Positions 17,138 through 31,281 of a stretch of 57,608 nucleotides of DNA are shown piece by piece; position 1 is the first letter of the stretch, and every line of letters starts with the position of its first letter. The notes beneath the pieces were generated by a model. The model had not been told where the DNA came from and made no database searches. It saw only the letters and a list, made by a program, of their open reading frames with translations. Source of the stretch: Myxococcales bacterium (GTDB lineage: Bacteria > Desulfobacterota > Binatia > HRBIN30); NCBI GenBank assembly GCA_037445065.1, contig JBBILD010000024.1, forward strand, positions 1 to 57,608. Direction: 5' to 3'. The position numbers and the translations under genes are program-made.

Positions 17138-17804
17138 GCGGGGGCGTGAATTCTGGCGACAAGTGTTCGGTCGCGAGGGACACGTGGAGGTGGAAATCGG
17201 GCCAGGCACGGGCTCCTTTTTGCTCTCCGTGGCGCAAGCCCACCCGGAGGTCAACTTTCTCGGGATCGAGGCGTCGCGGCGGCGCGCTACGAGGCTCGAG
17301 CAGCAGGTGGTGTCGCGTGGTTTGGGCAATGTGGTCGTCTTGTACGCGCCGGCGCAATGCGTCCTTGCCCAACTGATCCCGGCATTGAGTGTCGCTGCCT
17401 TCCATATCTACTTTCCGGACCCTTGGTGGAAGCGGCGTCACCAACGGCGCCGGCTACTCACCCCGGAACTGGTCGCCAGTGTCGAACGGGTTCTGGTGCC
17501 CGAGGGCAAGGTGTTTTTTGCTACCGATGTCGACCTGGTCTGGCAGCTCGCACTGTCCGTGTTTGCAACCTGCGCTTCCCTGCGCCCCGACCCTTCCTTA
17601 CAACCGGTCCGACCCGTGCCGACTCATTTCGAAACCAAAGCAATGCGCCGCGGTGCGATGGTGCGCGATCTGGTGTTGGTGAAGCGACCCGGGGCGCTGC
17701 TCCTGCCTGGCCCGCCTAGCCACCCGACTTCCGTGGATTCGGGAACCACGGCGGACGTACTCCCTTCAGGGCTGCCATCCACCGCTTCCCATCCTCGGCC
17801 GTAA
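17127..17804 (+). CDS. trmB: tRNA (guanine-N7)-methyltransferase
   Basis: VEIGPGTG, NFLGIE, YFPDPWWKRRHQRRRL, ATD, THFETK. Confidence 0.9.
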   Translation: MEAERGREFWRQVFGREGHVEVEIGPGTGSFLLSVAQAHPEVNFLGIEASRRRATRLEQQVVSRGLGNVVVLYAPAQCVLAQLIPALSVAAFHIYFPDPWWKRRHQRRRLLTPELVASVERVLVPEGKVFFATDVDLVWQLALSVFATCASLRPDPSLQPVRPVPTHFETKAMRRGAMVRDLVLVKRPGALLLPGPPSHPTSVDSGTTADVLPSGLPSTASHPRP

Positions 17805-19176
17805 CAGCGCCAAACGCTGCCAGCAAACCCACGTAGGCGCCGGCTGCAACCAGCGCTGCACTCGTGCCCGCCCCGAGGACGTTGGGGATGGGCCAGGTCG
17901 CAATGCCCGCCAGCACAGGGCGCCAGGCTTGCCTTACAGCATCGAGTACGGTGGCTCGGGTATTGGGCAGGAAGAACCAGCAACAGAAACCCAACACCGA
18001 ACTCGCCAAAGTGGCCGCGCCAGCGCCTGCGGCCCCGTATGCAGGAATCCAGAACAGGTTGAGGCCGATGTTCGCGGCCACCGCTAAGGCGCTCACCAGC
18101 AGCATCGAGCGCAACCAGCGGGCAATCAGAAATTCGTTCAAAAACACGGAACCGAGGAAGGCAAAGAACATATTCGAGCCCAGAAAAGCGAGTGCCGGTG
18201 CCCCGGCCCGAAACGGCTCGCCGAAAATCAGGCCGAGCATCGTTTCCCCCCACCACACGCATGAGGACACCACCGGCACGGCGATCACGGCTAAGTACCG
18301 AAAGGCGAGCTGGCGGGCGCGTCGGTAGCGCTCGGGCCGCGAATGGAACGAAGCGGCCATCACAGGAAGAAGCGAAAGCATGGCCGCCTCAGGCATCAAC
18401 GCGAAGGCCTCCGCCAGGCGCACAGCGGCTGCGTACAAGGCCAGCTCGTGGGCGTCGCGCCAGCGGAATAGGAGAACCTGATCCACCCGCATGGCCGCGA
18501 GGAACAGAAAGGAAAGCGTGCCAAGCTGCAGCCCATCTCCCACCAGCAGCCTCAGTACGTCCCGGTGCAGGCTCCAGCGGATTGCACCCTCGCGCAAAAG
18601 CAGCGCGAGGATGATTCCGCTCAAAATTATGGAGTTGATGAGTCCGGCGGCAAAAACGGACACCAGAGGCCACTGCATCCACAGACACATGCCAACCAAG
18701 GCCAAAAAGAGCAGCGAGGAAGCAAGGGTCAGCGGGTACAGGCGGTCCATTTGCAGGCGGGCCTGAAAGTAGGCGCGGCCGATCGGATCGAACGACAGCG
18801 GGAAGACCCCCAATCCCAGCAAGTAGCAAGCGAGTACAGCGCTGGAGAGAGCAAGCAACCGCGCCACGACGAGACCAACCAGGACCGTGACCACACCCAG
18901 CGTGAAACGCAGAGCGAGCGCGTTGGCGATGAGCACCGGTACACGCTCTGGCTGGCGAGCCAGTTCCCGTACAAGCACCCTTTCCACGCCGAGATCGCTG
19001 ACAAAGCCGACCAGCAGCAAGAGCACCCCAACGTACGAGTATGTGCCGAACTCTTCTGGGCCGAGCCCGCGTGCCAGCACAAACACCAGCAGGAAGTTGA
19101 GGCTCTTGTGCGACACCATGCCGGCCAAGCTGACCAACGACTGGCTGAGCACTCGGGCGGAACCGTACCGGATCAT
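17716..19176 (-). CDS. wzx: Wzx/MATE-type oligosaccharide flippase
   Basis: About 12-14 hydrophobic segments; ARGLGPEEFG, DLG, RVDQVLL, YAAAVRL, NIGLNLFWIPAYGAAGAG. Confidence 0.88.
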   Translation of the reverse strand: MIRYGSARVLSQSLVSLAGMVSHKSLNFLLVFVLARGLGPEEFGTYSYVGVLLLLVGFVSDLGVERVLVRELARQPERVPVLIANALALRFTLGVVTVLVGLVVARLLALSSAVLACYLLGLGVFPLSFDPIGRAYFQARLQMDRLYPLTLASSLLFLALVGMCLWMQWPLVSVFAAGLINSIILSGIILALLLREGAIRWSLHRDVLRLLVGDGLQLGTLSFLFLAAMRVDQVLLFRWRDAHELALYAAAVRLAEAFALMPEAAMLSLLPVMAASFHSRPERYRRARQLAFRYLAVIAVPVVSSCVWWGETMLGLIFGEPFRAGAPALAFLGSNMFFAFLGSVFLNEFLIARWLRSMLLVSALAVAANIGLNLFWIPAYGAAGAGAATLASSVLGFCCWFFLPNTRATVLDAVRQAWRPVLAGIATWPIPNVLGAGTSAALVAAGAYVGLLAAFGAVTAEDGKRWMAALKGVRPPWFPNPRKSGG

Positions 19177-19242
19177 GCATTCGCCCGAGCCGCCTGCACT
19201 GCCTGCGGCCACGTTGCTTCGCCACAGCCCAGCGCCGGCTGC

Positions 19243-20169
19243 TTATTGCAAGCCCAAGTCACGCAACGGAAGCTGACCCCGCACGCCATCGAAAAAGCCC
19301 CGCAGTAGCCAGAGATACGACTTGATCCGCTCCCGCCGCAACAGTGCGAGCACGATCCACCAACCGACACCAGCAAAGAACAAGGTCACGAATTTGGTCA
19401 GTTGCAAGAGCGTGCCGTGTTTCTTGGCGAACAAAATGCTGTTCCGCCCGAGGAAATACAAAACTGGAAACTGCTTTTCTCGGTTTGGGTTCGCGGCACC
19501 GAAGCCCTGGTGATAAATGATGGCGTGGCCGTTGTAGACGATCCGGAAGCCCGCTTTGCGAGCGCGCTCGCACCAGTCCACGTCTTCGTGGTAGCCGAAG
19601 AAACTCTCATCAAAGCCGCCGACTCGTTCGATGGCTGCGCGCTTCATCATGACCCCGTTGCCGATCACCCAATCTACGTCCTTGACGCAGGTGAACTCCG
19701 GACCGTCCGGCTGGCGGGAGCCGACCAGTTCCACCAAGTCACGGTGGTAACGAATCTCCCCGTAAGCACCCCAGACGATGCGGTGGTCTTCGAGCAAGAT
19801 GTTCTTCGAGCCCACCGCTCCGATGCGTGGGTCGGATTCCGCCACGCGGACCAGTTCGTCTAGCAAGTCGGGGTGCAACTCGGTGTCATTGTTGAGCAGC
19901 AACACATAGTCCGCGCCGCGCTCGAGTGCGTCACGGATCCCCCGGTTGTTGCCTCCACAAAAACCGAGGTTCTTTTCCATGACCAACACCCGCTGCTCGG
20001 GGAAGTGCAGGCGGATGGCTTCCACGCTGCCGTCCGTGGAGGCGTTGTCCACTACGGTCGCGCTCCAATTTGGGTAGCGGATGCGGGGCAAGGTAGCGAG
20101 GCAGCGCAAAACATCCTCCTTGCCGTTCCAGTTCAAAATCACAATAGCCACGTGCGCGGGTGACCTCAT
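19243..20169 (-). CDS. GT2 glycosyltransferase (WbbL/rhamnosyltransferase-like)
   Basis: ILNWNG, VDNASTD, NLGFCGGNN, LLNND, FDESFFGYHEDVDW. Confidence 0.92.
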   Translation of the reverse strand: MRSPAHVAIVILNWNGKEDVLRCLATLPRIRYPNWSATVVDNASTDGSVEAIRLHFPEQRVLVMEKNLGFCGGNNRGIRDALERGADYVLLLNNDTELHPDLLDELVRVAESDPRIGAVGSKNILLEDHRIVWGAYGEIRYHRDLVELVGSRQPDGPEFTCVKDVDWVIGNGVMMKRAAIERVGGFDESFFGYHEDVDWCERARKAGFRIVYNGHAIIYHQGFGAANPNREKQFPVLYFLGRNSILFAKKHGTLLQLTKFVTLFFAGVGWWIVLALLRRERIKSYLWLLRGFFDGVRGQLPLRDLGLQ

Positions 20170-20173
20170 TGCC

Positions 20174-21112
20174 TCACTGCGCAGCGCCTCGCTGGTGAGA
20201 GGAGCGGTCCAAGCCCAAGGCTTCCACCGGCACGGGGCGGCGCAGCAAGCCATCCCGGATGCCCAGCAAGCGTAAGCGGAACCCCGGCAGCTCGTGCCGG
20301 CGATAGCGAAGCCATGCGTCCTTGCACAGGTTCACGGTCAAGTGGAGGGCGTACTTCAGTTGCTCTCCGGTAGAGGCATTCTTGCGCACGAACAGAATTG
20401 CGTTTCTCGCGGAGAGGTACGTAATCGGGCTCAGGTATCCGCCTCCTGTGGACGCGTGCATGCGGTGGTACACGACTGCGCTCGGCACGTAGCGCACGCG
20501 GTAGCCTGCACGCCGCGCACGAACACACCAGTCGAGGTCCTCGTGGTAAGCAAAGAACTCTTCATCGAACCAACCCACCTCTCGTAGAGCACGCGCGCGA
20601 AGCAACATGGCGCAGCCGGATACGTAATCCACGTCCTCCTGCTCCGAGAACAGAGACACGTCGTCTTCCATCCATCCACGCTGCTGCACGAGGGGACCGT
20701 GGTACGTGAGCACCCCATACGCTGTGTGAATGCGGGGCGGCGTTTCCTGGGTAAGGGTCTTCGCTCCCGCCACGCCGATGCGATCGTCCGCTTCCACCGC
20801 GCGAACCAGCTCTGCCAGGCAATTCGGCGCCGCCACCGCATCGTTATTGATCAAAAACACGCCGTCCGCTTGTTGGGCGAGTGCGGATCGAATCCCAGCG
20901 TTTGCGCCGGCAGCAAAGCCGAGGTTCCGTTCCAACTGCACGACACGCACCCGCTCTGGTTCTCGAGGCAGCAGGGGGCGTGGATCTTCCTCCGAGCCGT
21001 TGTCCACCACGACCACCTGCCGCGGGGTCAGGGAGCCGGCGAGCAGGCTCTGCACGCATGCTCGCGTTAGCTCTGCCTGATTCCAATTCACCACAACCGC
21101 GTCAATCCGCAT
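20174..21112 (-). CDS. GT2 glycosyltransferase (WbbL-like)
   Basis: VVNWN, VDNGS, NLGFAAGAN, INND, FDEEFFAYHEDLDW. Confidence 0.92.
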   Translation of the reverse strand: MRIDAVVVNWNQAELTRACVQSLLAGSLTPRQVVVVDNGSEEDPRPLLPREPERVRVVQLERNLGFAAGANAGIRSALAQQADGVFLINNDAVAAPNCLAELVRAVEADDRIGVAGAKTLTQETPPRIHTAYGVLTYHGPLVQQRGWMEDDVSLFSEQEDVDYVSGCAMLLRARALREVGWFDEEFFAYHEDLDWCVRARRAGYRVRYVPSAVVYHRMHASTGGGYLSPITYLSARNAILFVRKNASTGEQLKYALHLTVNLCKDAWLRYRRHELPGFRLRLLGIRDGLLRRPVPVEALGLDRSSHQRGAAQ

Positions 21113-21127: not shown

Positions 21128-21949
21128 TCAAGCAGGTCGGCGGGCCACGGCTAGTACGCCTCCGGCGATGATCCAGGGGGAAAGCGTATTGGCCACTCGC
21201 TGCAGGAGGCGCCCCTTGCGGTTGAGTTCCCAGCGCTTGCGGCCCGGTGCCATGTCGAACATCCCAACCCGGTACCCGAAGAATGATGAGGAGTCGACCC
21301 ACAGCCCCTTCCCCAACGGGGGATGGAACTCGTCCGCATGCACGGACAGGACCTCGAAGCCTGCTTGGCGGAGAAACCCAGATAACTCACGCGCGGAAAA
21401 GCGGTACTCGGCAAATTCCAGACGAAGTCCCTGACGCCGCTTTTGCCAGTCGCGCAGCCGCCTCAGGTGGTTGATCAGCAGCCGGCGCCACAAGTTGTTG
21501 TAGGGCACGGCAACCAGCGCCACGCCACCCGGGCGCAACACCCGCCACAACTCGCGCAGAGCCGGCACCGGTCCTGCCTCCTCGTGTTCGACCACACCCA
21601 AGGAGATCACTCCGCCCAGAGCGCCGTCTGCGATCGGCAACCGGTTGGTGTCCCCCACAAACACCCATCCTCGGGCTCCATTTGCCGCCGCTGCAGAGAT
21701 GGCGGCCCGCGCGCGGTCGACCCCGAAGACTCGATAACCGTGCTGGCGCAAAAAGATCACCCAGCGGGCAAGGCCGCATCCCGCGTCGAGCACGGCTGTG
21801 TCAGGCGGCAGCTCGCGCAAAAACACAGGTAATGTCGTTTCGTGCGCGCAAAGTTCTACGTGGTCGGCGACCGAATCAAAGCTCCAGAAGATCTGGCTCG
21901 CTTCGATACCGGTGTTCACGGTGAAATATTTGAAGCTCACCTGCTTCAC
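21128..21949 (-). CDS. Class I SAM-dependent methyltransferase
   Basis: VLDAGCG, GVD, GVVEH, RVLRPGG; SD GGAGG; GTG 21949 overlaps the upstream stop (GTGA). Confidence 0.88.
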   Translation of the reverse strand: MKQVSFKYFTVNTGIEASQIFWSFDSVADHVELCAHETTLPVFLRELPPDTAVLDAGCGLARWVIFLRQHGYRVFGVDRARAAISAAAANGARGWVFVGDTNRLPIADGALGGVISLGVVEHEEAGPVPALRELWRVLRPGGVALVAVPYNNLWRRLLINHLRRLRDWQKRRQGLRLEFAEYRFSARELSGFLRQAGFEVLSVHADEFHPPLGKGLWVDSSSFFGYRVGMFDMAPGRKRWELNRKGRLLQRVANTLSPWIIAGGVLAVARRPA

Positions 21950-22890
21950 CTCCGCCTCAGGCCGAGTTCTGCAAACGGGATCGGCCGCCCGCGCAGGGCA
22001 TCCCACATACCTCGTACTTTGTAGGTCACGCCGGCCTGTTCTCCAGTGAGCAAGCGGCGCACGTATTGAAGCGGTAAGGTGGCAATCTGGAAGGCGACGA
22101 ATTTGCACTTCTGTAGCGGACTCGCGTGCTTGCGAACGAACAGGACCATATTGCGGCCAGCTAAGTATTGGCGCGGGCTCACGTACCGCTTACCGCCCGA
22201 ACTCCCGTGGCCTTTGTGTAAAATTCGTCCCTGCGGAGCAAAAACCACCCGATACCCCTTTTTGCGGGCGGCGGTACACCAGTCCACATCTTCGTGGTAC
22301 GCGAAAAACTCCTCGTCGAAGAGGCCCACTTCTTCCAACGCTTGGCGGCTGAGCAGCACTGCGGTGCCCGGCACCCATTCGACATCGCGTTGGGCGGCGA
22401 AACGCTCATCATCTTTCCAGTAGTAACCAATTAACCGGACCAGCCCTTGCCGGTACGTCACCTCCCCGTACGCAACCCAAACCCGAGTCGGGTCATCCCA
22501 AGCTAACACTTTCACCCCCACTGCAGCGATGCGCCGATCTTGCCGGGCCACTTGCACGGCTTGGCGAATGGCATCTGGCTCCACAACTGTGTCGTTGTTC
22601 AGCACAAAGACATACTCGTGCCCGCGTGCAAGAGCGTAGCGAATGCCAGCGTTGTTTCCGCCGGCATAGCCGATGTTTTCTGGCAACCCCAAGTACTTCA
22701 CCTCGGGGAAGCGCTCGAGGATGATTTCCTTCGGGTCTGGCTGCGAGCCGTTGTCAACGACAATCCACTCGGCATTCGGGTAATCCGACCGGACCAAGCT
22801 CGCTAAGCACTCCAGCGTGTCGCTGGTGCCGTTCCAGTTCAGGACGACCACACCGACCTTTGGCCAGTCTGGCACAGCGCGGTCACGCAC
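21946..22890 (-). CDS. GT2 glycosyltransferase (WbbL-like)
   Basis: VLNWNG, VDNGS, NIGYAGGNN, LNND, FDEEFFAYHEDVDW. Confidence 0.92.
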   Translation of the reverse strand: MRDRAVPDWPKVGVVVLNWNGTSDTLECLASLVRSDYPNAEWIVVDNGSQPDPKEIILERFPEVKYLGLPENIGYAGGNNAGIRYALARGHEYVFVLNNDTVVEPDAIRQAVQVARQDRRIAAVGVKVLAWDDPTRVWVAYGEVTYRQGLVRLIGYYWKDDERFAAQRDVEWVPGTAVLLSRQALEEVGLFDEEFFAYHEDVDWCTAARKKGYRVVFAPQGRILHKGHGSSGGKRYVSPRQYLAGRNMVLFVRKHASPLQKCKFVAFQIATLPLQYVRRLLTGEQAGVTYKVRGMWDALRGRPIPFAELGLRRR

Positions 22891-23974
22891 GTGTCACCTC
22901 GCGATATACCTCGAGGGTAGCTTTCGCCGTCTTTCGCCAACTAAACTGCCGCGCTCGCTCCAGTCCGGCTTCCCGCAACTGCCTCCGCAAACCACTGTCT
23001 CCGGCCACGCGGGCGATCGCGTCGGCGAGGCTCGGCACGTCGAAATCAAAAAAATACGCCGCCTCACCAATCACTTCCGGAAGGGAGCCGGCGCGAGGCG
23101 CGAGCACAGGACACCCGCTTTGCATGGCTTCGAGAAAAGACAGACCAAACCCTTCGTAACGGCTCGGGCTGCAAAAGGCGACTGCGTGACGATATAACGC
23201 CGCTAGTTCTTCGTCCGTGACCTCCCCGAGGTAGTTCACTCCGGGGGGCGGCGACTGGACAAACGAGGGTCGGTAATCCGGGCGAAGCCGGCCGGCAATC
23301 ACAAGGTTCAGTTCCGGATTGCGATCCCGCAGCGAGGAAAACGCGCTCACTAAGTCCGCAACGCCTTTGCGCGGTTGTACAGTGCCAGCGTACAGCAAGT
23401 AGGGGAGTCGGACTCCTAGGCGCTCGAGAGTCGCCGGGTCGGAACCTTGTGGTTCTGAGCAAAACACGGAAGCCGCGGCCAAAGGAGCGACACGCAGGCG
23501 CGGGCTAATCGAGGGGAAAGCCTTACAAAGGTCGGCACGAGAATGCTCGCTGTCGGTCAGGACCGCGCGAGCCAAGCGCACGGTGCGCGGCAACAATGCG
23601 CGCAGGTGGAGGCGCTGCAGCACCGAGAAGGTACGCGGAAAGCGCAGCACGGCAAGGTCGTGGATCGTGACCACGTATGGGGCGCACTGAACGGGGGGCA
23701 AGATCCCCTTTGTACCGTGGTACAAGTCTAGCTTTCTGCCTCGCATGGCGAGCGCCACTTTGAGGTCCCACCACGCTTGCTCCCAGGTCCGCCGCAGCGG
23801 GACATGAACGAGGGAAATTCGCCCGCCAGCGAGCGGGGCGAGGGCGCTCGGCTGATCCGTGAAGATGATCAGCTCGAGGTCTGCATCCAAGCGTGACAAG
23901 GCTCGAACCAATTCCACCCCGTACCGAGCTGGCCCACCTCGGATGCTTGCCATCACCCCGATCCCGGCACGCAT
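22883..23974 (-). CDS. GT4 glycosyltransferase (MtfB/WbpY-like)
   Basis: VVTIHDL, GTVQPRKG, PSRYEGFGLSFLEAMQSG, FSWRKTA. Confidence 0.9.
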   Translation of the reverse strand: MRAGIGVMASIRGGPARYGVELVRALSRLDADLELIIFTDQPSALAPLAGGRISLVHVPLRRTWEQAWWDLKVALAMRGRKLDLYHGTKGILPPVQCAPYVVTIHDLAVLRFPRTFSVLQRLHLRALLPRTVRLARAVLTDSEHSRADLCKAFPSISPRLRVAPLAAASVFCSEPQGSDPATLERLGVRLPYLLYAGTVQPRKGVADLVSAFSSLRDRNPELNLVIAGRLRPDYRPSFVQSPPPGVNYLGEVTDEELAALYRHAVAFCSPSRYEGFGLSFLEAMQSGCPVLAPRAGSLPEVIGEAAYFFDFDVPSLADAIARVAGDSGLRRQLREAGLERARQFSWRKTAKATLEVYREVTRA

Positions 23975-24897
23975 GGTTGCACCACTGGAAGGCCTGACAA
24001 AGCGCCGCCTCTTCCGCGCAGGCCAGTCCAAGCTCCACGCAGTAGCGCCCGGACAACTGGCCAGTCCAAACGTACCGCAGCGAACAACACGCTCATGACG
24101 ATGAGACCCTCGACCAGCGGACCCAGGAGCAAGTAGTGGTACCAACGTGCGTGCCGGCGGAAGAGCAAGTGCACGTTGCGTGCCTTGAGCTCTGCGCTGA
24201 CCGCTGTCAGTCCGCGCCGGAACCCTCGCCAGCCCCCGTGGTACACACGCGCCGCCGGCACCACAACGGTTCGAATGCCGTGCCGGCGCGCCCGCATGGC
24301 CAAGTCGACTTCTTCGTAATAGGCAAACAAGTCTTCCCAAAACCCTCCCAGCCGCTGCCAGGCTGCAGCGCTAAAAAACAGCGTACAACCGAGCAATCCT
24401 GAAACCGCGTAGTAAGGCACAGCCGTGTCGGGTACCTGCGCGAAAGCCCAGCGTCTCGGCCAGGCCAAATACCAAAGGCTTGCGCGCTCGCCGGCGGAGA
24501 GGAGAGAGCCGCTGTCGCGGTCGTACACCACAGGTCCTGCCAGCACGGCCTCCCCGAGCTGCGGAGCCACCTGTTGAAAAGCCGCCAAAGTCGCAGGCTC
24601 CAAGACTGTATCTTGCGTAGTCAAGAGAACCCAGCGGGCGCCGCGTGCAAGAGCGCGCCCGACTCCCACGTTCGCACCACCAGCAAAACCGACGTTCTTT
24701 TCGTTCCACAAGATCTCGCTGCGCTCGCTCTCCGGCACCAGTGCTCGAAGTTGCGCCCTTTGCAACGGGTGGGACGCGTTATCCACTACCACCAGGAACC
24801 AATCTTGCGTGGTTTGTGCGTGCAAGGAGCGCATGAGTTCGCGCAGCGGCTCGGCGCCATTCCAGTGTACAACCACGACGGCGAGAGAGTGGTTCAT
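23953..24897 (-). CDS. GT2 glycosyltransferase (divergent WbbL-like)
   Basis: VVHWNG, VDNAS, NVGFAGGAN, FWEDLFAYYEEVD. Confidence 0.87.
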   Translation of the reverse strand: MNHSLAVVVVHWNGAEPLRELMRSLHAQTTQDWFLVVVDNASHPLQRAQLRALVPESERSEILWNEKNVGFAGGANVGVGRALARGARWVLLTTQDTVLEPATLAAFQQVAPQLGEAVLAGPVVYDRDSGSLLSAGERASLWYLAWPRRWAFAQVPDTAVPYYAVSGLLGCTLFFSAAAWQRLGGFWEDLFAYYEEVDLAMRARRHGIRTVVVPAARVYHGGWRGFRRGLTAVSAELKARNVHLLFRRHARWYHYLLLGPLVEGLIVMSVLFAAVRLDWPVVRALLRGAWTGLRGRGGALSGLPVVQPCVPGSG

Positions 24898-26033
24898 TGC
24901 TGGCCGGCCTCTAATACCAAGTCGCGGAATCTTGCGCCCTGGCAACGAACGGAGAAACGGTCCTCCATCAGACGAGCCGCCCGGCTGCCAAGCTGCAGCC
25001 GAACATCCCGATCCCGTGCCAGCATTTCCAGGGCATCCGCGAGTGCTTGAGCATCACGGGGCCGAACGAGCCAAATATCCTCCCCGTGGCTGAAGACCTC
25101 GCGCACCGCCGGAGTGTCAGCCGTCACAACCGGGCGGCCCACCGCCGCACTTTGGTAGATCTTGTTCGGGATGACCATGCGCGCCTTCGTTCCATTGTCG
25201 AAGATGCCCAAACACACGTCATGGCTAGCAATCAAGTGCTGCAGTTCCTGGTACGGGACCCACGGCACAAAGGCGACGTGGGCCAGTTGTCGCTCTTCGG
25301 CGTACCGCCTGCACCGCGCGTACTCCCAACCATCCCCACACAGCGTGAAGTGAATTCCACGATCCCTCGGTAGTCGTTCTGCCGCCTCCAGGATGGTACG
25401 TACCCCATGGAGCGGCAGGAACGAACCGAAGAACAAAACTTTGAGTTCGTCTCGCGCAGTCGGTGGTTCGCTGAGGTGAAATACGGACCAGTCCGGCCCC
25501 AAATAAAACACCGCCAGGCGTTCTTCGGAGATGCCAAAGGTGCGCTGCAAGTAACGGGCGTGTTCCTGAGTATCAACGATGACCAGGTCGGAAACCGAGA
25601 GACTTTTGCGGTCCAACCAGCGCAGCAAGCGCGCAAGCCAGGAGCGAGGCGCGAGCCAAGCCCGGTCCTCGACCATGGTTTCGGTGATGGTGGTCAGTGG
25701 CGCGAACAACAAGGGCCGCTGGGGTCGAAGCATGCGGAGCAGCAGCACATCGAGGGAGCCCTGGAAACCCACCAAGTAGGCCGTAAATCCAGAAGCATCT
25801 CGGTGGTACACCCGGGTCAGATGCCATGCAGCGCGGCAATAGCCTAAGGCCTTTCCGATCAGCGAAACGGGTCGGAAGTAGCGGGTGTCTTTGACTGGGT
25901 CTTTTTCCCACACTGGGTAGTGGTACTCAACGACCTGAAACCCGGCTTCCGTGGCAGCCGAGCGGAGAATTCGCGTCACCGTGTACGAGGCAGGATAGGT
26001 TCCAAAAAAACAAATCCGCGCTGCTTGCTGCAC
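24894..26033 (-). CDS. GT4 glycosyltransferase
   Basis: FFGSFLPLHGV, DVCLGIF, VIPNKIYQSAAVGRPVVTADTP. Confidence 0.87.
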   Translation of the reverse strand: MQQAARICFFGTYPASYTVTRILRSAATEAGFQVVEYHYPVWEKDPVKDTRYFRPVSLIGKALGYCRAAWHLTRVYHRDASGFTAYLVGFQGSLDVLLLRMLRPQRPLLFAPLTTITETMVEDRAWLAPRSWLARLLRWLDRKSLSVSDLVIVDTQEHARYLQRTFGISEERLAVFYLGPDWSVFHLSEPPTARDELKVLFFGSFLPLHGVRTILEAAERLPRDRGIHFTLCGDGWEYARCRRYAEERQLAHVAFVPWVPYQELQHLIASHDVCLGIFDNGTKARMVIPNKIYQSAAVGRPVVTADTPAVREVFSHGEDIWLVRPRDAQALADALEMLARDRDVRLQLGSRAARLMEDRFSVRCQGARFRDLVLEAGQQ

Positions 26034-26056: not shown

Positions 26057-27064
26057 TCAGGCCTGCGCTCTCGCTTTCTCGTCTCTGCGCGCCTCGACCT
26101 TTTCGGGCTCGGGCACTTTCTCTCCGAGTTCGAGGCAGCGGATGCGGAAGAGTACGTCTTCGATGAGGGCTCGATTGCCCGCAATCAAGTCGGCAACCAA
26201 GCCGATCAAGACGGTTTGAAAGCCGATGATGATGAGAAGGACTGTGAGCAAGAGCGATTGGATGTGCCCGCCGCCTTCTCCGATCCAGTAGAAGTACAAG
26301 AAACGAATCCCTGGGATGAGTCCGAGAAAAATCAATGCACCGCCCACATACGAAAAGACCTTGAGCGGTTCGTACAACGCGTAGATGCGCACGATGGTGG
26401 CGGCGGAGCGTTTCACGTACTCCCAGACGCTGTGGAAGAGCTTCGAGCCCCGCGTTGGGTTCGTGCGTACGGGAACATGGGTGATGGGCAGGCGCTTCTT
26501 GCCCGCCTGGATGATGGTTTCGATCGTGTACGTAAAGTCCGACAGCACGTTCAGCCGCAGGGCAGCCTCACGGCTGAGGGCGCGAAAACCACTGGTCGTA
26601 TCGGGTACGCTGGTTCCCGACAAGGTACGAACCACCCAACTTCCGTAAACCTGGAGCAGGCGTTTTCCCCGGGAGAAATGTTTGACCGTGGCGGGATCGC
26701 GGTCCCCCACGACCATGTCTGCCTTGCCCTCTAAAATTGGCCGAATCAACGCGGGAATGTCCGCGCCATCGTATTGATTGTCCGCGTCCGTGTTGACGAT
26801 CACGTCGGCGCCGAGGCGCAGGCACGCATCGAGGCCGGCGCGAAATGCGCGCGCCAGACCGCGGTTATTTGGAAAGCGCAAGATGTAATCCGCGCCTTCC
26901 CGGCGGGCGACCTCGGAGGTTGCGTCGCGCGAGCCGTCATCAATCACCAGCACCTCTACCACGTCCACGCCCGGAATCCTGCGCGGCAAGTTGCGCAGGG
27001 TTTGAGCCAGATGCTCCTCTTCGTCGTAGCAGGGAATCTGGATAATGAGTTTCTTCGCTCGCAT
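26057..27064 (-). CDS. GT2 polyprenol-phosphate glycosyltransferase (DPM/GtrB-like) with two C-terminal TM helices
   Basis: IPCYDEE, IDDGSRD, NTDADNQY, DTTSGFRA, then two hydrophobic helices. Confidence 0.9.
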   Translation of the reverse strand: MRAKKLIIQIPCYDEEEHLAQTLRNLPRRIPGVDVVEVLVIDDGSRDATSEVARREGADYILRFPNNRGLARAFRAGLDACLRLGADVIVNTDADNQYDGADIPALIRPILEGKADMVVGDRDPATVKHFSRGKRLLQVYGSWVVRTLSGTSVPDTTSGFRALSREAALRLNVLSDFTYTIETIIQAGKKRLPITHVPVRTNPTRGSKLFHSVWEYVKRSAATIVRIYALYEPLKVFSYVGGALIFLGLIPGIRFLYFYWIGEGGGHIQSLLLTVLLIIIGFQTVLIGLVADLIAGNRALIEDVLFRIRCLELGEKVPEPEKVEARRDEKARAQA

Positions 27065-27158: not shown

Positions 27159-29135
27159 ATGACCTCGTTCCTCGAACTGCTGGTCGCCGCGCTCTGCTTG
27201 TACCTGCCCGGGCGCGCGTGGTTTCCGCTTTTTCTGGAGAGAACCACCGGACCGGCGTTGCCGATCTCGCGCTTGGTCGTGGAGGTCGCGACCAGTACCG
27301 CCGGAGCGACCTTCGTCTCGCTTCTCTTGTTGGACCTCGGTGCCTTCTCCCTAGCGACCCTAGGAGTTGTGCTTGCAGCCTGGGCACTGTTGGGTTGGAT
27401 CCTCGCGCGCAACGCGCCTCGCTTTCGCTACGGCAGGACGGATCTGGCCGTGGTCGGCGTGTTCGTCCTGGGGCTGCTGTGGCTCTCGCCGCCCATGTCG
27501 GCTCATTTTGCCGGAGCCGATGGAACCGCGTACTTGGCTGCGGGTGCGGCAGGGGCGCGGACCGGCACGTTCGTCAGGAAGGACCCTAGCGTGCTGGCCT
27601 TGGACCCGGACGCGCGCCGGGCGTTTTTTCCCAGCGTCGCCGCCGATCGGGGCTCCCCCCCCTACGTTCGTTTGGAAGGCGGGCTCATCTTGCGGGACCT
27701 GGACAGCGGCGACGTCCTCCCAGCATTCCAAGCCGGGCTGATCCCGTGGCTGGCACTCGGGGCATCGTGGCTCGGAAGCGAGCGGATGGTCTGGATCGTT
27801 CCGTTTTTTGCCGCCTCCGCTCTCGGCACGCTCTACGCGCTTTTACGCACCTTCACGCGCTCGTCCGCAGCGCTGCTCGGCACCTTGCTGCTGGCAGTGC
27901 AAGCGCCATTTGTGTTTTACGGTCGCTTCCCGCAACCAGAAGCGGGCGCAACTTTCTTCCTGCTGAGCGGCCTTTATGCGTTGGTGATGTTCGAAACGGG
28001 TTACCCGGCCGCGTCTGCTCTGGTCGGCCTCGCCTTTGGCGCGGCAGGGCTATTCCGCATGGAAATGCTTTTCCTCCTTCCCGCCGGCTTGTGGTGGGCT
28101 TGGCTGCACCTTGCCATCTCACGGGTCGCCCGGGTGGCAATCGCAGCGGCTCCGTTTTGCGGCGCAGCGCTCGCCCGCGCCGCCTGGTTTCGAACGCACT
28201 ACTGGGGAAACCTAGAGACGTTTGCCAGCGACCACGCTGTCCTCCTCGGCATTCTCTTCGGCGTCGCTGGTGCTGCCACCGCACTGCGCCTATGGAAAGG
28301 CGCGCTCCGAACAAGCCACGTACTCTCCGCTGTCGTCCTAGGAGGAGTCTTGGCTCTGGGTGCGTTCCAACTCTCGTCCTCAGCGCGATGGCTGATCGAA
28401 GCGAGTGGCGCCTTACTGTTTCTCGGTGTTAGCGGCTGGTTTTACATCTTTGCGCGCGGCAGGGGCTTGCCTGCGCCGTTCACCATGTGTGCACTTGCGA
28501 CTTTGGGCACTTTGGCTTTTTGCCTCTATGTTTTCGCGCCAAACGCCGCCCCGGTACCCTGGTGGGTTCTGCGACGATCCGTTCCTGTGATCCTCCCGTG
28601 CTTGGCAATCGGCGCGGCGATTCTCCTAGCCAGCGCCTCGCACGGACGGGTGGCCGCACCCCTGCTCGCCGCATCTGCCGTTGTCGCTTTGGCCGCCTTC
28701 TCCCCCGCGAGCCGATCCTTACACCGCTCGGGATTTTTTTCGTCCGCGGCCACACATGCCAAAGCCGTATCGCATCTATTCCCAGACCGATGCATCGCGG
28801 TCGTAGAACCAAAACTCGCCCCGCTCGGGCTGCCGTTGTGGCTGTGGTCTGAGCGAGACTGCGGCGGTTACTACATTCCGGCCGACGACTGCGAGCGCCT
28901 TCGGATGCTCACTTCGAGCACTACGCCGTCCCCACCGGTCTACCTCGTGACCGCGGGCGATCGAGCAGATCATTGCAGCGGAACTCAGTTTCGGATCGTG
29001 CCGGTGGCCCGCTACGAATTTGCACTTCGCAACCCATTGGAAGAGACTGCGGGCCTGCACGCCGCTTCAGGCGAACGACCCGGCTTTCGACTCTACGAGC
29101 TCTCCGTGTATCTCCTGCGAACGCGTGGGCAATAA
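27159..29135 (+). CDS. Polytopic membrane protein, GT-C (ArnT/PMT-like) glycosyltransferase candidate
   Basis: Many TM segments; loop motif GADGTAY; YGRFPQPE, LFRME, WWVLRRSVP; small soluble C-terminal domain; divergent from the GT operon. Confidence 0.62.
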   Translation: MTSFLELLVAALCLYLPGRAWFPLFLERTTGPALPISRLVVEVATSTAGATFVSLLLLDLGAFSLATLGVVLAAWALLGWILARNAPRFRYGRTDLAVVGVFVLGLLWLSPPMSAHFAGADGTAYLAAGAAGARTGTFVRKDPSVLALDPDARRAFFPSVAADRGSPPYVRLEGGLILRDLDSGDVLPAFQAGLIPWLALGASWLGSERMVWIVPFFAASALGTLYALLRTFTRSSAALLGTLLLAVQAPFVFYGRFPQPEAGATFFLLSGLYALVMFETGYPAASALVGLAFGAAGLFRMEMLFLLPAGLWWAWLHLAISRVARVAIAAAPFCGAALARAAWFRTHYWGNLETFASDHAVLLGILFGVAGAATALRLWKGALRTSHVLSAVVLGGVLALGAFQLSSSARWLIEASGALLFLGVSGWFYIFARGRGLPAPFTMCALATLGTLAFCLYVFAPNAAPVPWWVLRRSVPVILPCLAIGAAILLASASHGRVAAPLLAASAVVALAAFSPASRSLHRSGFFSSAATHAKAVSHLFPDRCIAVVEPKLAPLGLPLWLWSERDCGGYYIPADDCERLRMLTSSTTPSPPVYLVTAGDRADHCSGTQFRIVPVARYEFALRNPLEETAGLHAASGERPGFRLYELSVYLLRTRGQ

Positions 29136-29167
29136 AAAAGGCGGCGGGGCAAAGCCCCACCGCCTTT
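29134..29167 (-). terminator. Intrinsic terminator of the secreted-paralog operon (possibly bidirectional)
   Basis: Minus strand AAAGGCGGTGGGGC-TTT-GCCCCGCCGCC-TTTTTT (stem with one G-U pair plus U tract). Confidence 0.85.
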
Positions 29168-29188: not shown

Positions 29189-29836
29189 TTAGTTCAGAAT
29201 ACCCGGCCGCGCTACGACGAATCCATCGTCGCAGTTGACCACCTCGGCAGACAAAATCTCGAGATTGTGGCTGGCGAGCCCCTTGGGCTGGGAACTCTGA
29301 GTCAAGCAGCTCTGGATGTCCTGTGTCCCCAAGACCACCCCACGGCCATTGGCAACGAAGCAGCCGCTGATCTGATTTCCACACTCGAACGTAGTGTCGG
29401 CAAAAGTAACCAACGCGTTGGTTTTCGGAGGGTGCTTCGTCGTCACACCGGCACGGGTGGTTCTGACCGTCAACCGCACCTTTACCTTCTGCCCATTCTG
29501 CAGCCCAGTCATGAAGAGCTTGACGCGCCCCTGTCCGCCGGCAAGCCCAGGGAACCGGCGCACGTCAAGTCGCCCGATTTTCATCGGTGCTCCCACTGGG
29601 TTCGTACCCAGTGGTGGAGGAAAAGGGTCGGATGGGTTTGCCAAACATCCCCCGCTCGGCAAGTTTGCCGGAGCCGTCACCGTCAACCCCGATGGAGTAC
29701 ATGCGTCAAATGCTCGTGCCAGCCACGACGAAAAGCGAGCCGCCCTCGACGGGAACAGTGGACTTTGCCCCTCACTCATTTGTGGCACCATGCCTGCCAG
29801 CAGGATTGCCCCAGCTGCCAAAACCGCCTTTTTCAT
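29189..29836 (-). CDS. Secreted hypothetical protein, paralog C (6 Cys)
   Basis: SD GGAGGGAG; signal peptide MKKAVLAAG...SEG/Q; shares WLARAFDACTP, GCL, TKHPP, VTFAD, ARPGI motifs with neighbours. Confidence 0.88.
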   Translation of the reverse strand: MKKAVLAAGAILLAGMVPQMSEGQSPLFPSRAARFSSWLARAFDACTPSGLTVTAPANLPSGGCLANPSDPFPPPLGTNPVGAPMKIGRLDVRRFPGLAGGQGRVKLFMTGLQNGQKVKVRLTVRTTRAGVTTKHPPKTNALVTFADTTFECGNQISGCFVANGRGVVLGTQDIQSCLTQSSQPKGLASHNLEILSAEVVNCDDGFVVARPGILN

Positions 29837-29906
29837 ACTCCCTCCTTTGAACTTGTTGCCTCGTTCTCCCTTATTCGGTGCTTCCATCCTAAGTCAAGAG
29901 ACAATT

Positions 29907-30524
29907 TCACCGCAGGATACCGCTGCGCGCGAGTTCCTTACCACTCGAAACATTCACTAGGCTCGCGCCCAAGACCTCGATATTCGCCAAGTTCGGCGTT
30001 GCGCCGCCCGCAAGACCGGTGTTCGGGGAGAGGCAAGCGGCCAGATCCGTTCTACCGAGGATCGCTCCACTCGGCCGAACCACGAAAGCATTTGGCGCGG
30101 CGGGACAATCCACAGAAAAGTCTGCAAACGTAACGGTGGCTCCGGTCTTCGGTGGGTGCTTGGTGGAAACTCCCTTTCGGGTGACGCGTAAATTGAGCCG
30201 AACGCGGACAGACTCACCGAACGTGAAGCCGCGGCCAAAAATACCGATCTTTCCCGACTTGCTCACGCGCAGACGCGCGAAGTTCATCGGCAGCGTGGGC
30301 TCGGTCACTGAATTCGCAGCCAAGCACCCACCACCCGACGGAAGCCCGGTCGTCAGCACCGTCAACGTGGATGGAGTGCAGGGATCAAAGGCCCGTGCCA
30401 TCCAAGTGTCGTACAAAGGAGCTTTCGTCACAAACAATGGCAACGTCTGCGCCAGCGCTGGCTTCCCCGCGACGAAGCCGAACCACCCGAGCACGGCCAA
30501 CCCAAAAATCCTTGTTCCCTTCAT
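29907..30524 (-). CDS. Secreted hypothetical protein, paralog B (4 Cys)
   Basis: SD GGGAGG; signal peptide ...ALA/Q; WMARAFDPCTP, GCL, TKHPP, VTFAD, ARSGILR. Confidence 0.88.
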   Translation of the reverse strand: MKGTRIFGLAVLGWFGFVAGKPALAQTLPLFVTKAPLYDTWMARAFDPCTPSTLTVLTTGLPSGGGCLAANSVTEPTLPMNFARLRVSKSGKIGIFGRGFTFGESVRVRLNLRVTRKGVSTKHPPKTGATVTFADFSVDCPAAPNAFVVRPSGAILGRTDLAACLSPNTGLAGGATPNLANIEVLGASLVNVSSGKELARSGILR

Positions 30525-30550
30525 TGTCGCGCCTCCCTTCGCTCCGGCAC

Positions 30551-31156
30551 TCAGCGCATGATTCCTGGCCGCGCAAAGACCTTGTTTGCGTTATCCGCGT
30601 TTACCAAGGCCACGTCCACAATCTCGATGTTTCCAAGCGCAAGACCCGGATAAGGCTGCAAACAGTCCGACAAATCAATTTTGCCACCCAAGTTTCCGCT
30701 CGGCCACACAGCAATGAACCCGAACGGTGGGGGTCCGCAAACGACCGTTGTATCTTGGAAAGTGACGCGCTTCGTCCCGGGGGGATGCTTGGTCGAGATC
30801 CCGTTACGGGTCGTGCGCACCGTAAGCTGCACTTTTACGCGCCCACCGGGCGTGAGCCCCCGACCGAAGACTTTGATCTTCCCGTTTCCCTTCGAGATCG
30901 TGATTTTCCCAAACTGCATCGGCATCTGGTTGTCCACGACCGTCGCGCTCGACAGGCAACCCTGAGCCGGTAAGCCAGTGGTTGTCACCGTGAGGCTTCC
31001 TGGGGTGCAAGCATCGAACGCTCGCACAAGCCAAGCCGAATAATTTCGGGCCACCTGTGGAAACGCCGGCGTCTGAGCTTGCGCCCAAGCCGCGAGCCAC
31101 GTCACCGCGACCGCTGCCAGACCGCCGGCTGCCCAACCGTACAGCCTAGTTTTCAT
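30551..31156 (-). CDS. Secreted hypothetical protein, paralog A (4 Cys)
   Basis: SD AAGGAGG; signal peptide ...AQA/Q; WLVRAFDACTP, GCL, TKHPP, VTFQD, ARPGIMR. Confidence 0.88.
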   Translation of the reverse strand: MKTRLYGWAAGGLAAVAVTWLAAWAQAQTPAFPQVARNYSAWLVRAFDACTPGSLTVTTTGLPAQGCLSSATVVDNQMPMQFGKITISKGNGKIKVFGRGLTPGGRVKVQLTVRTTRNGISTKHPPGTKRVTFQDTTVVCGPPPFGFIAVWPSGNLGGKIDLSDCLQPYPGLALGNIEIVDVALVNADNANKVFARPGIMR

Positions 31157-31240: not shown

Positions 31241-31257
31241 TGACAATCAGTTGTCAA
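31241..31257. promoter_or_regulatory. Palindromic operator overlapping a perfect -35 hexamer
   Basis: TGACAA-tcag-TTGTCA (31241-31256); minus-strand TTGACA at 31257-31252; AT-rich tract CATATATGAT downstream. Confidence 0.6.
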
Positions 31258-31281
31258 GAACAAACCCCTCCGGCCCAACGG

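Follow-up and report, generated by a model that had tools for sequence, protein, structure and literature searches.

Which function could three similar small genes in tandem have, if none of the proteins resembles anything catalogued? The question was raised by an initial annotation of a window of 57,608 nt (the whole stretch of DNA that was analysed), in which three co-oriented ORFs of about 200 codons were interpreted as an operon for secreted subunits of an undescribed extracellular polymer. The arrangement itself could be confirmed. All three genes, here termed A, B, and C, are located on the minus strand, and their coordinates are listed in Table 1 along with those of the neighbouring features.

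Table 1. Features of the A/B/C locus and its surroundings (positions in the window)
Feature	Position	Strand	Length	Remarks
-35 box, sigma70 type	31252..31259	-		follows a T-rich tract; conserved
Paralog A	30551..31156	-	201 aa	Sec leader and one predicted disulfide-stapled SOD-like barrel domain; mature part about 174 aa, pI about 10.0
Paralog B	29907..30524	-	205 aa	mature pI about 10.2
Paralog C	29189..29836	-	215 aa	mature pI about 9.8
Intrinsic terminator	29133..29167	-		14-bp GC stem (29137-29167), then U run
GT-C-like membrane protein	27159..29135	+	658 aa	polytopic, single-copy; convergent with the triplet
GT2 glycosyltransferase (PF00535)	26057..27064	-		83-85% identity with orthologs from five genomes
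Glycosylation cluster, conserved	21128..26033	-		two GT4, two GT2, methyltransferase
Two further GT2-like ORFs	19243-21112			basis: clustering only

The three proteins and their family

A, B, and C are clearly related to each other. Pairwise E-values range from about 1e-34 to 1e-42, and identity to A amounts to 49% for B and 45% for C. Every one of the collinear motifs listed in the initial annotation was found in the three proteins, and the cysteines were counted correctly there, with four in mature A and B and six in C, which carries an extra pair as well as a proline-rich loop insertion. Purine-rich Shine-Dalgarno sites, read from the sequence, precede all three starts, as had been claimed. 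The postulated signal peptides are evident as Sec-type leaders without a lipobox, as judged by inspection only. The mature proteins comprise 174 to 192 residues (about 19 kDa) and lack a hydrophobic C-terminal tail. In the genome, which is 97.7% complete, these are the only copies of the family.

The description as an unrecognised family proved correct. For the three proteins no matches were obtained in Pfam and NCBIfam at E<=1, and searches of PDB sequences with three profiles yielded nothing at E<1. When 37 members were compared to Pfam, scattered weak matches were the only result, and none was to the superoxide dismutase (SOD) model. An HMM search of 1.84 billion representative sequences gave 98 matches. 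Three of them (P0093, P0103, P0111) were dropped as repeat-driven noise, having no domain E-value below 2e-4, and two chimeric-looking sequences (P0096, P0109) were omitted from later profiles. The named homologs belong to Candidatus Binatia.

A narrow family profile matched 20 of 41 related genomes, nine of which contain three adjacent copies (G000, G008, G009, G011, G014, G018, G020, G022, and G024). In G006 there are three copies, the first two separated by an insertion, and in G005 four matches, while relatives farther off harbor one or two copies. Several complete relatives have lost the family, which is therefore dispensable. As a unit, the tandem triplet is conserved and not scattered, but in other families the relatives are mostly encoded by single genes, and a division into major and minor subunits, as initially proposed, therefore cannot be a general rule.

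In a quick tree, the B copies and a core of the C copies cluster by position (support 99 in both cases), and resolution is low among the A-like copies. With their respective orthologs from five genomes of a sister genus, A, B, and C share about 70% identity each. The corresponding value for rnc is 63-67% and that for iscS 52-56%, with rnc, mnmA, and iscS together covering 52-67%; cimA and lysC are more conserved than A, B, and C (84-87%). The three genes are ancient, position-specific paralogs within Ca. Binatia. The B clade also includes the second domain of natural two-domain fusions (P0018, P0019, and P0020), in which the domains are joined by short linkers. Such fusions of an A-like domain to a B domain suggest that A and B may be in direct contact.

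In five proteins and one locus (P0071, P0080, P0085, P0095, P0105, and L090:4756-6578) cysteine-rich repeats are inserted in the loops of the predicted barrel described below, suggesting that it may display variable modules. In two near-complete genomes (L088:6464-7160 and L089:6639-7290) a family gene seems to be split across two frames, by an assembly error or as a pseudogene. In one genus, rnc and the triplet are separated by a gene of opposite orientation (L031:6230-7675, also in L032 and L039), which encodes a membrane protein of about 480 aa without a Pfam or NCBIfam match.

Expression signals and predicted fold

According to the initial annotation, the unit has its own operator and terminator. 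The terminator was borne out. The hairpin between C and the convergent membrane-protein gene has a z score of -4.9, and none of 200 shuffled sequences was equally good; a simple terminator scanner did not flag it (29137-29167). The operator had to be rejected. In 16 upstream regions, hand-picked from homologous loci, the 6-bp palindrome at 31241-31256 is kept in one, whereas the perfect -35 hexamer that constitutes its left arm is exact in 12 and present with one mismatch in another. The background of this hexamer in the genome is 0.014 per 170 nt, and a conserved perfect -35 box is the more plausible interpretation of the element. Upstream of A, no match to a -10 box was found at canonical spacing. 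Codon usage of A, B, and C lies in the 87-91st percentile towards that of ribosomal protein genes, in a genome with weak bias. The -35 box and, to a modest degree, codon usage point to high expression of the three genes.

An AlphaFold2 model of A (pLDDT 87) is all-beta with eight main strands, in agreement with the beta strands and disulfides suggested before. The arm preceding the first strand is conserved; in the monomer model of A its residues 1-10 have a pLDDT of 60, and in the model of a distant homolog (pLDDT 94) the same arm is confidently folded (pLDDT 91). VIA-align placed SOD and CCS entries in the top 14 positions for A. The best match was 6flh (Z 7.7, rmsd 3.4, 101 aligned residues, model residues 9-171), and another SOD-type match was 8aca (Z 6.7, rmsd 3.3, 87 aligned). 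For the distant homolog, 6flh again ranked first (Z 7.3), the top eight entries were SOD or CCS, and SOD dominated the top 14 (12 entries). Values of Z under 8, into which both models fall, may indicate merely a common arrangement. Foldseek searches against PDB and viral structures produced nothing at E<=0.001, and the ESM Atlas gave scores under 0.8 at most or no usable match. Pilin, TasA, Ena, or cannula entries did not head any of the fold-search lists, although such folds would still be conceivable, and lectin folds did not rank first either.

Among 37 sequences, histidine is conserved above 41% at none of the positions, and A and B contain a single histidine each; the proteins are therefore not SODs. 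They are predicted to form a disulfide-stapled, metal-free SOD-like barrel of eight strands without conserved histidines, the match to SOD being middling, in which two or three disulfides per protein may be paired. Cu/Zn SOD is the best structural match, but His ligands are not conserved, sequence similarity is lacking, and extra disulfide-tied loops are present. Strand exchange via a terminal strand, as envisaged in the initial annotation, is not favoured, since in the model the first and last strands belong to a complete barrel in which no strand is obviously lacking, although a swap would still be compatible with a monomer model.

A related terminal domain and a membrane partner

According to profile comparisons, the family is part of a larger, uncatalogued superfamily. 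A broader Binatia group (alignment A9), reached through weak matches, is connected to the A/B/C family with a probability of 97.9% over 164 columns, and its profile recovers the A/B/C genes at E 1e-6. The distant homolog modelled above is from this group. The same group is connected to a terminal domain of secreted proteins with a probability of 99.1% over 169 columns. The direct profile link between the A/B/C family and this domain is weak (3.9-85%), and their relation is therefore transitive, via A9 as a bridge. The terminal domain was detected in 1208 protein clusters with sizes of 291-928 aa, two of them with members named Solirubrobacterales. It is attached in one copy each to secreted propeller, FG-GAP, and other proteins, and is terminal in all 84 complete ORFs and in 118 of 120 listed proteins. 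In Pfam and NCBIfam, no model covers the A/B/C, A9, or terminal domains. Charge varies among the superfamily groups (median pI 9.7, 7.7, and 4.6). Binatia also contain longer secreted proteins with the domain once or twice at the C-terminus (L080:5252-6454, P0098; L073:3551-6469), and at two loci (L074:4756-6291 and L082:3600-5072) tandem superfamily domains are followed by a different conserved domain of about 150 aa, which looks unannotated.

The membrane protein encoded convergently to the triplet appears to belong to a GT-C-like family of its own that is not catalogued, the GT-C assignment being weak. Its match to PMT_2 is below the cut-off (20.7 versus 26.1 bits), four of 14 members of its family match PMT_2 at E<0.01, also below the cut-off, and a profile search of PDB sequences gave no match. 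It is only 31-37% identical to its orthologs, with invariant loop motifs kept, compared to 72-85% for the adjacent GT2. This GT2 may be a polyprenol-phosphate sugar synthase. At the far end of the glycosyltransferase cluster, an ORF judged by eye to specify a flippase-like membrane protein is found at 17716-19212.

In close relatives, the order is rnc, the single gene or triplet, a convergent gene for a membrane protein of about 660 aa, and GT2/GT4 genes. Of 151 genomes of the class, 72 contain the superfamily, as single genes, triplets, or tandem fusions, and 63 contain the partner; 56 genomes hold both, and another 72 hold neither. Joint presence in 30 genomes would be expected if the two were independent, which kin are not. 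In 40 of the 56 genomes holding both, they are within 1.5 kb of each other. For the best 30 partner loci this applies to 27, and to 21 of 24 if six loci used for the partner alignment are subtracted. Discordant genomes are also present, 16 with the superfamily and without the partner and seven with the reverse. Neither gene was detected in families f5 (1 genome), f6 (10), f10 (19), f11 (19), f15 (8), and f17 (2). Among the 41 close relatives, all 20 genomes with a strong partner match contain the family; of nine counted as lacking both genes, eight were searched with the narrow profile only. Two complete pairs of family and partner genes are present in G002.

Adjacency is kept in different orders, whether the two genes are convergent or co-oriented. 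For most of family f9, neighbouring positions of superfamily and partner genes are not evident, and partner homologs are absent from 79 loci carrying the terminal domain. Within the order, the housekeeping genes from rnc to lysC are equally syntenic. The coupling to the partner, which had not been mentioned in the initial annotation, is the strongest new evidence obtained here. Along with the strong promoter, the coupling to a glycosylation module makes a structural role at the surface more likely.

Possible roles of A, B, and C

The host is diderm, with two Omp85 proteins and two secretins, and LpxC is encoded in 147 of the 151 class genomes. Loss of LPS as the cause of the patchy distribution was rejected on the latter count. 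The absence of usher and sortase genes from the window was found to extend to the whole genome, in which PF00577 (with a positive E. coli control) and PF04203 had no matches. By the features compared, A, B, and C do not belong to the chaperone-usher pili, for want of an usher gene in the 97.7%-complete genome, nor to the sortase pili, for want of a sortase and a hydrophobic tail. A type IV pilin is at odds with the all-beta mature model and a leader that by inspection is of the Sec type, not a class III signal with an N-terminal helix. On another contig, a short exosortase/archaeosortase-like match exceeds the Pfam cut-off (G000:C20:26561-27010), but this route was set aside since A, B, and C have no membrane tail. 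Next to the triplet, conserved genes for a chaperone, an anchor, or a dedicated peptidase are lacking, and no route for passing the outer membrane was identified.

Small beta-rich paralogs with cysteines, encoded in tandem, are known from chaperone-usher pilins, TasA, and the endospore appendages Ena1A-C, and A, B, and C resemble them in this respect. A filament, as envisaged in the initial annotation, would consist of pilin-like major and minor units that are joined by beta-sheet augmentation or docking of the N-terminal arm and are glycosylated like many pilins. The conserved triplet, the head-to-tail fusions with short linkers, the conserved arm with its low pLDDT in A, and the two secretins are in agreement with such a structure, but it is unlikely given that usher, sortase, and linked accessory genes are missing, that the model of the distant homolog shows the arm folded with high confidence, and that most relatives are single genes. 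The complete barrel model and the fold searches, which none of these proteins led, also separate A, B, and C from the filament subunits mentioned. A somewhat unlikely alternative is a non-polymerising glycan-binding or accessory module, which would bind the glycan or the transferase of the adjacent cluster or act as a chaperone for either, and whose terminal copies would attach cargo to a glycopolymer of the surface, as SLH and CWB2 domains do. The same gene coupling, a predicted self-contained barrel, the basic charge of the A/B/C family, and the presence of a single terminal copy on many unrelated kinds of cargo would fit, but it is not obvious why such a module should need a perfect -35 box and three specialised, conserved copies, the charge changes sign across the superfamily, and the structure searches were not headed by lectin folds.

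It is quite improbable that the linkage reflects no more than a shared neighbourhood for envelope biogenesis, with A, B, and C serving an unrelated purpose in the periplasm. Synteny from rnc to lysC, the opposite strands of partner and triplet in this genome, and 23 of 151 genomes holding only one of the two are compatible with this idea, whereas adjacency across orders in both layouts and the joint duplication in G002 argue against it. Divergent Cu/Zn superoxide dismutases or copper chaperones are hardly credible despite the leading places of SOD and CCS in the structural comparisons, as the histidines are not conserved, the best Z value is in the range of merely common arrangements, and there is no match to SOD in Pfam.

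Tentatively, A, B, and C are best explained as abundant, glycosylated, self-associating subunits of a surface coat, whose domain serves elsewhere as a docking tag. Judging from their leaders, the proteins would be exported by Sec and fold in the periplasm into the metal-free barrel. The adjacent GT-C-like membrane transferase could then glycosylate them with a lipid-linked sugar supplied by the neighbouring GT2/GT4 cluster, as the gene coupling would suggest. Beyond the periplasm, the subunits may self-associate into a coat or S-layer-like lattice, as a homo-assembly in most Binatia, where a single gene is present, and here by co-assembly of three specialised copies, with A and B possibly touching as in the fusions. 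In other proteins, the domain would be appended to unrelated secreted partners as a terminal docking tag. The coupling to the partner, including the double pair in G002, the conservation of the triplet by position and to a degree above that of rnc and iscS, the promoter box and codon usage, the B-type second domain of the fusions, and the terminal position of the related domain are all consistent with a coat. In excerpts of PMC2943079, some S-layer genes are described as adjoining their glycosylation clusters and being transcribed independently. The A/B/C locus resembles the Geobacillus slg cluster of the SgsE/SgtA type outlined there, with an independently transcribed gene for an exported protein beside glycosyltransferases and a membrane transferase. 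A linked cluster of this kind, as in S-layer glycoproteins, is present here, the assignment of the transferase being weak. The locus, known here from its genes, differs from slg by its basic, disulfide-rich subunits of about 19 kDa, a diderm host, a GT-C/PMT_2-like partner, and the lack of SLH domains.

Several observations do not fit a coat easily. Canonical S-layer proteins have 40-170 kDa and are mostly weakly acidic, according to excerpts of PMC4232325, whereas A, B, and C are small, cysteine-containing, and basic (pI 9.8-10.2). The modelled barrel is complete, with no obvious strand to be donated. The 16 superfamily-only and seven partner-only genomes, the loci in f9, and the 79 terminal-domain loci without a partner depart from strict coupling. 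The GT-C assignment of the partner is weak and without a PDB match, no N-glycosylation sequon is conserved, and charge is not conserved in the superfamily. The connection to the terminal domain depends on the bridge group, and the family is dispensable and lacks an identified exit through the outer membrane.

SLH, CWB2, SLAP, and T9SS CTD are terminal domains for surface anchoring or sorting. Like them, the homologous domain is found once each at the end of many unrelated secreted proteins; unlike them, it has no Pfam or NCBIfam match, comprises about 200 aa with cysteines, and also occurs as a whole stand-alone exported protein. The uncatalogued superfamily is probably a new variant of glycosylated surface structural protein. 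It is possible, if less than probable, that it constitutes a new class of self-assembling surface glycoprotein, a metal-free SOD-like barrel with its own GT-C transferase in about half of the Binatia, which would have been recruited in Solirubrobacterales as a terminal tag to plug enzymes and propellers into a surface layer.

Literature searches revealed no papers pairing Binatia or Solirubrobacterales with "S-layer" and no description of proteins of the A/B/C type. In the main text of a Binatota survey, the terms LPS, lipopolysaccharide, pili, and peptidoglycan never occur; genomes of the lineage that carries A, B, and C were recovered from thermal springs, as stated in the same text (PMC8262859). 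Binatia and Solirubrobacterales are both widespread and mostly uncultured, and their envelopes are little described. The analysis names a candidate for a main surface protein, an enzyme that probably modifies it, and a related terminal domain in 1208 protein clusters. An unannotated superfamily thereby becomes a testable system, with three small proteins amenable to expression and imaging. If the new-class interpretation is true, it would represent an undescribed protein-display system spanning diderm and monoderm lineages.
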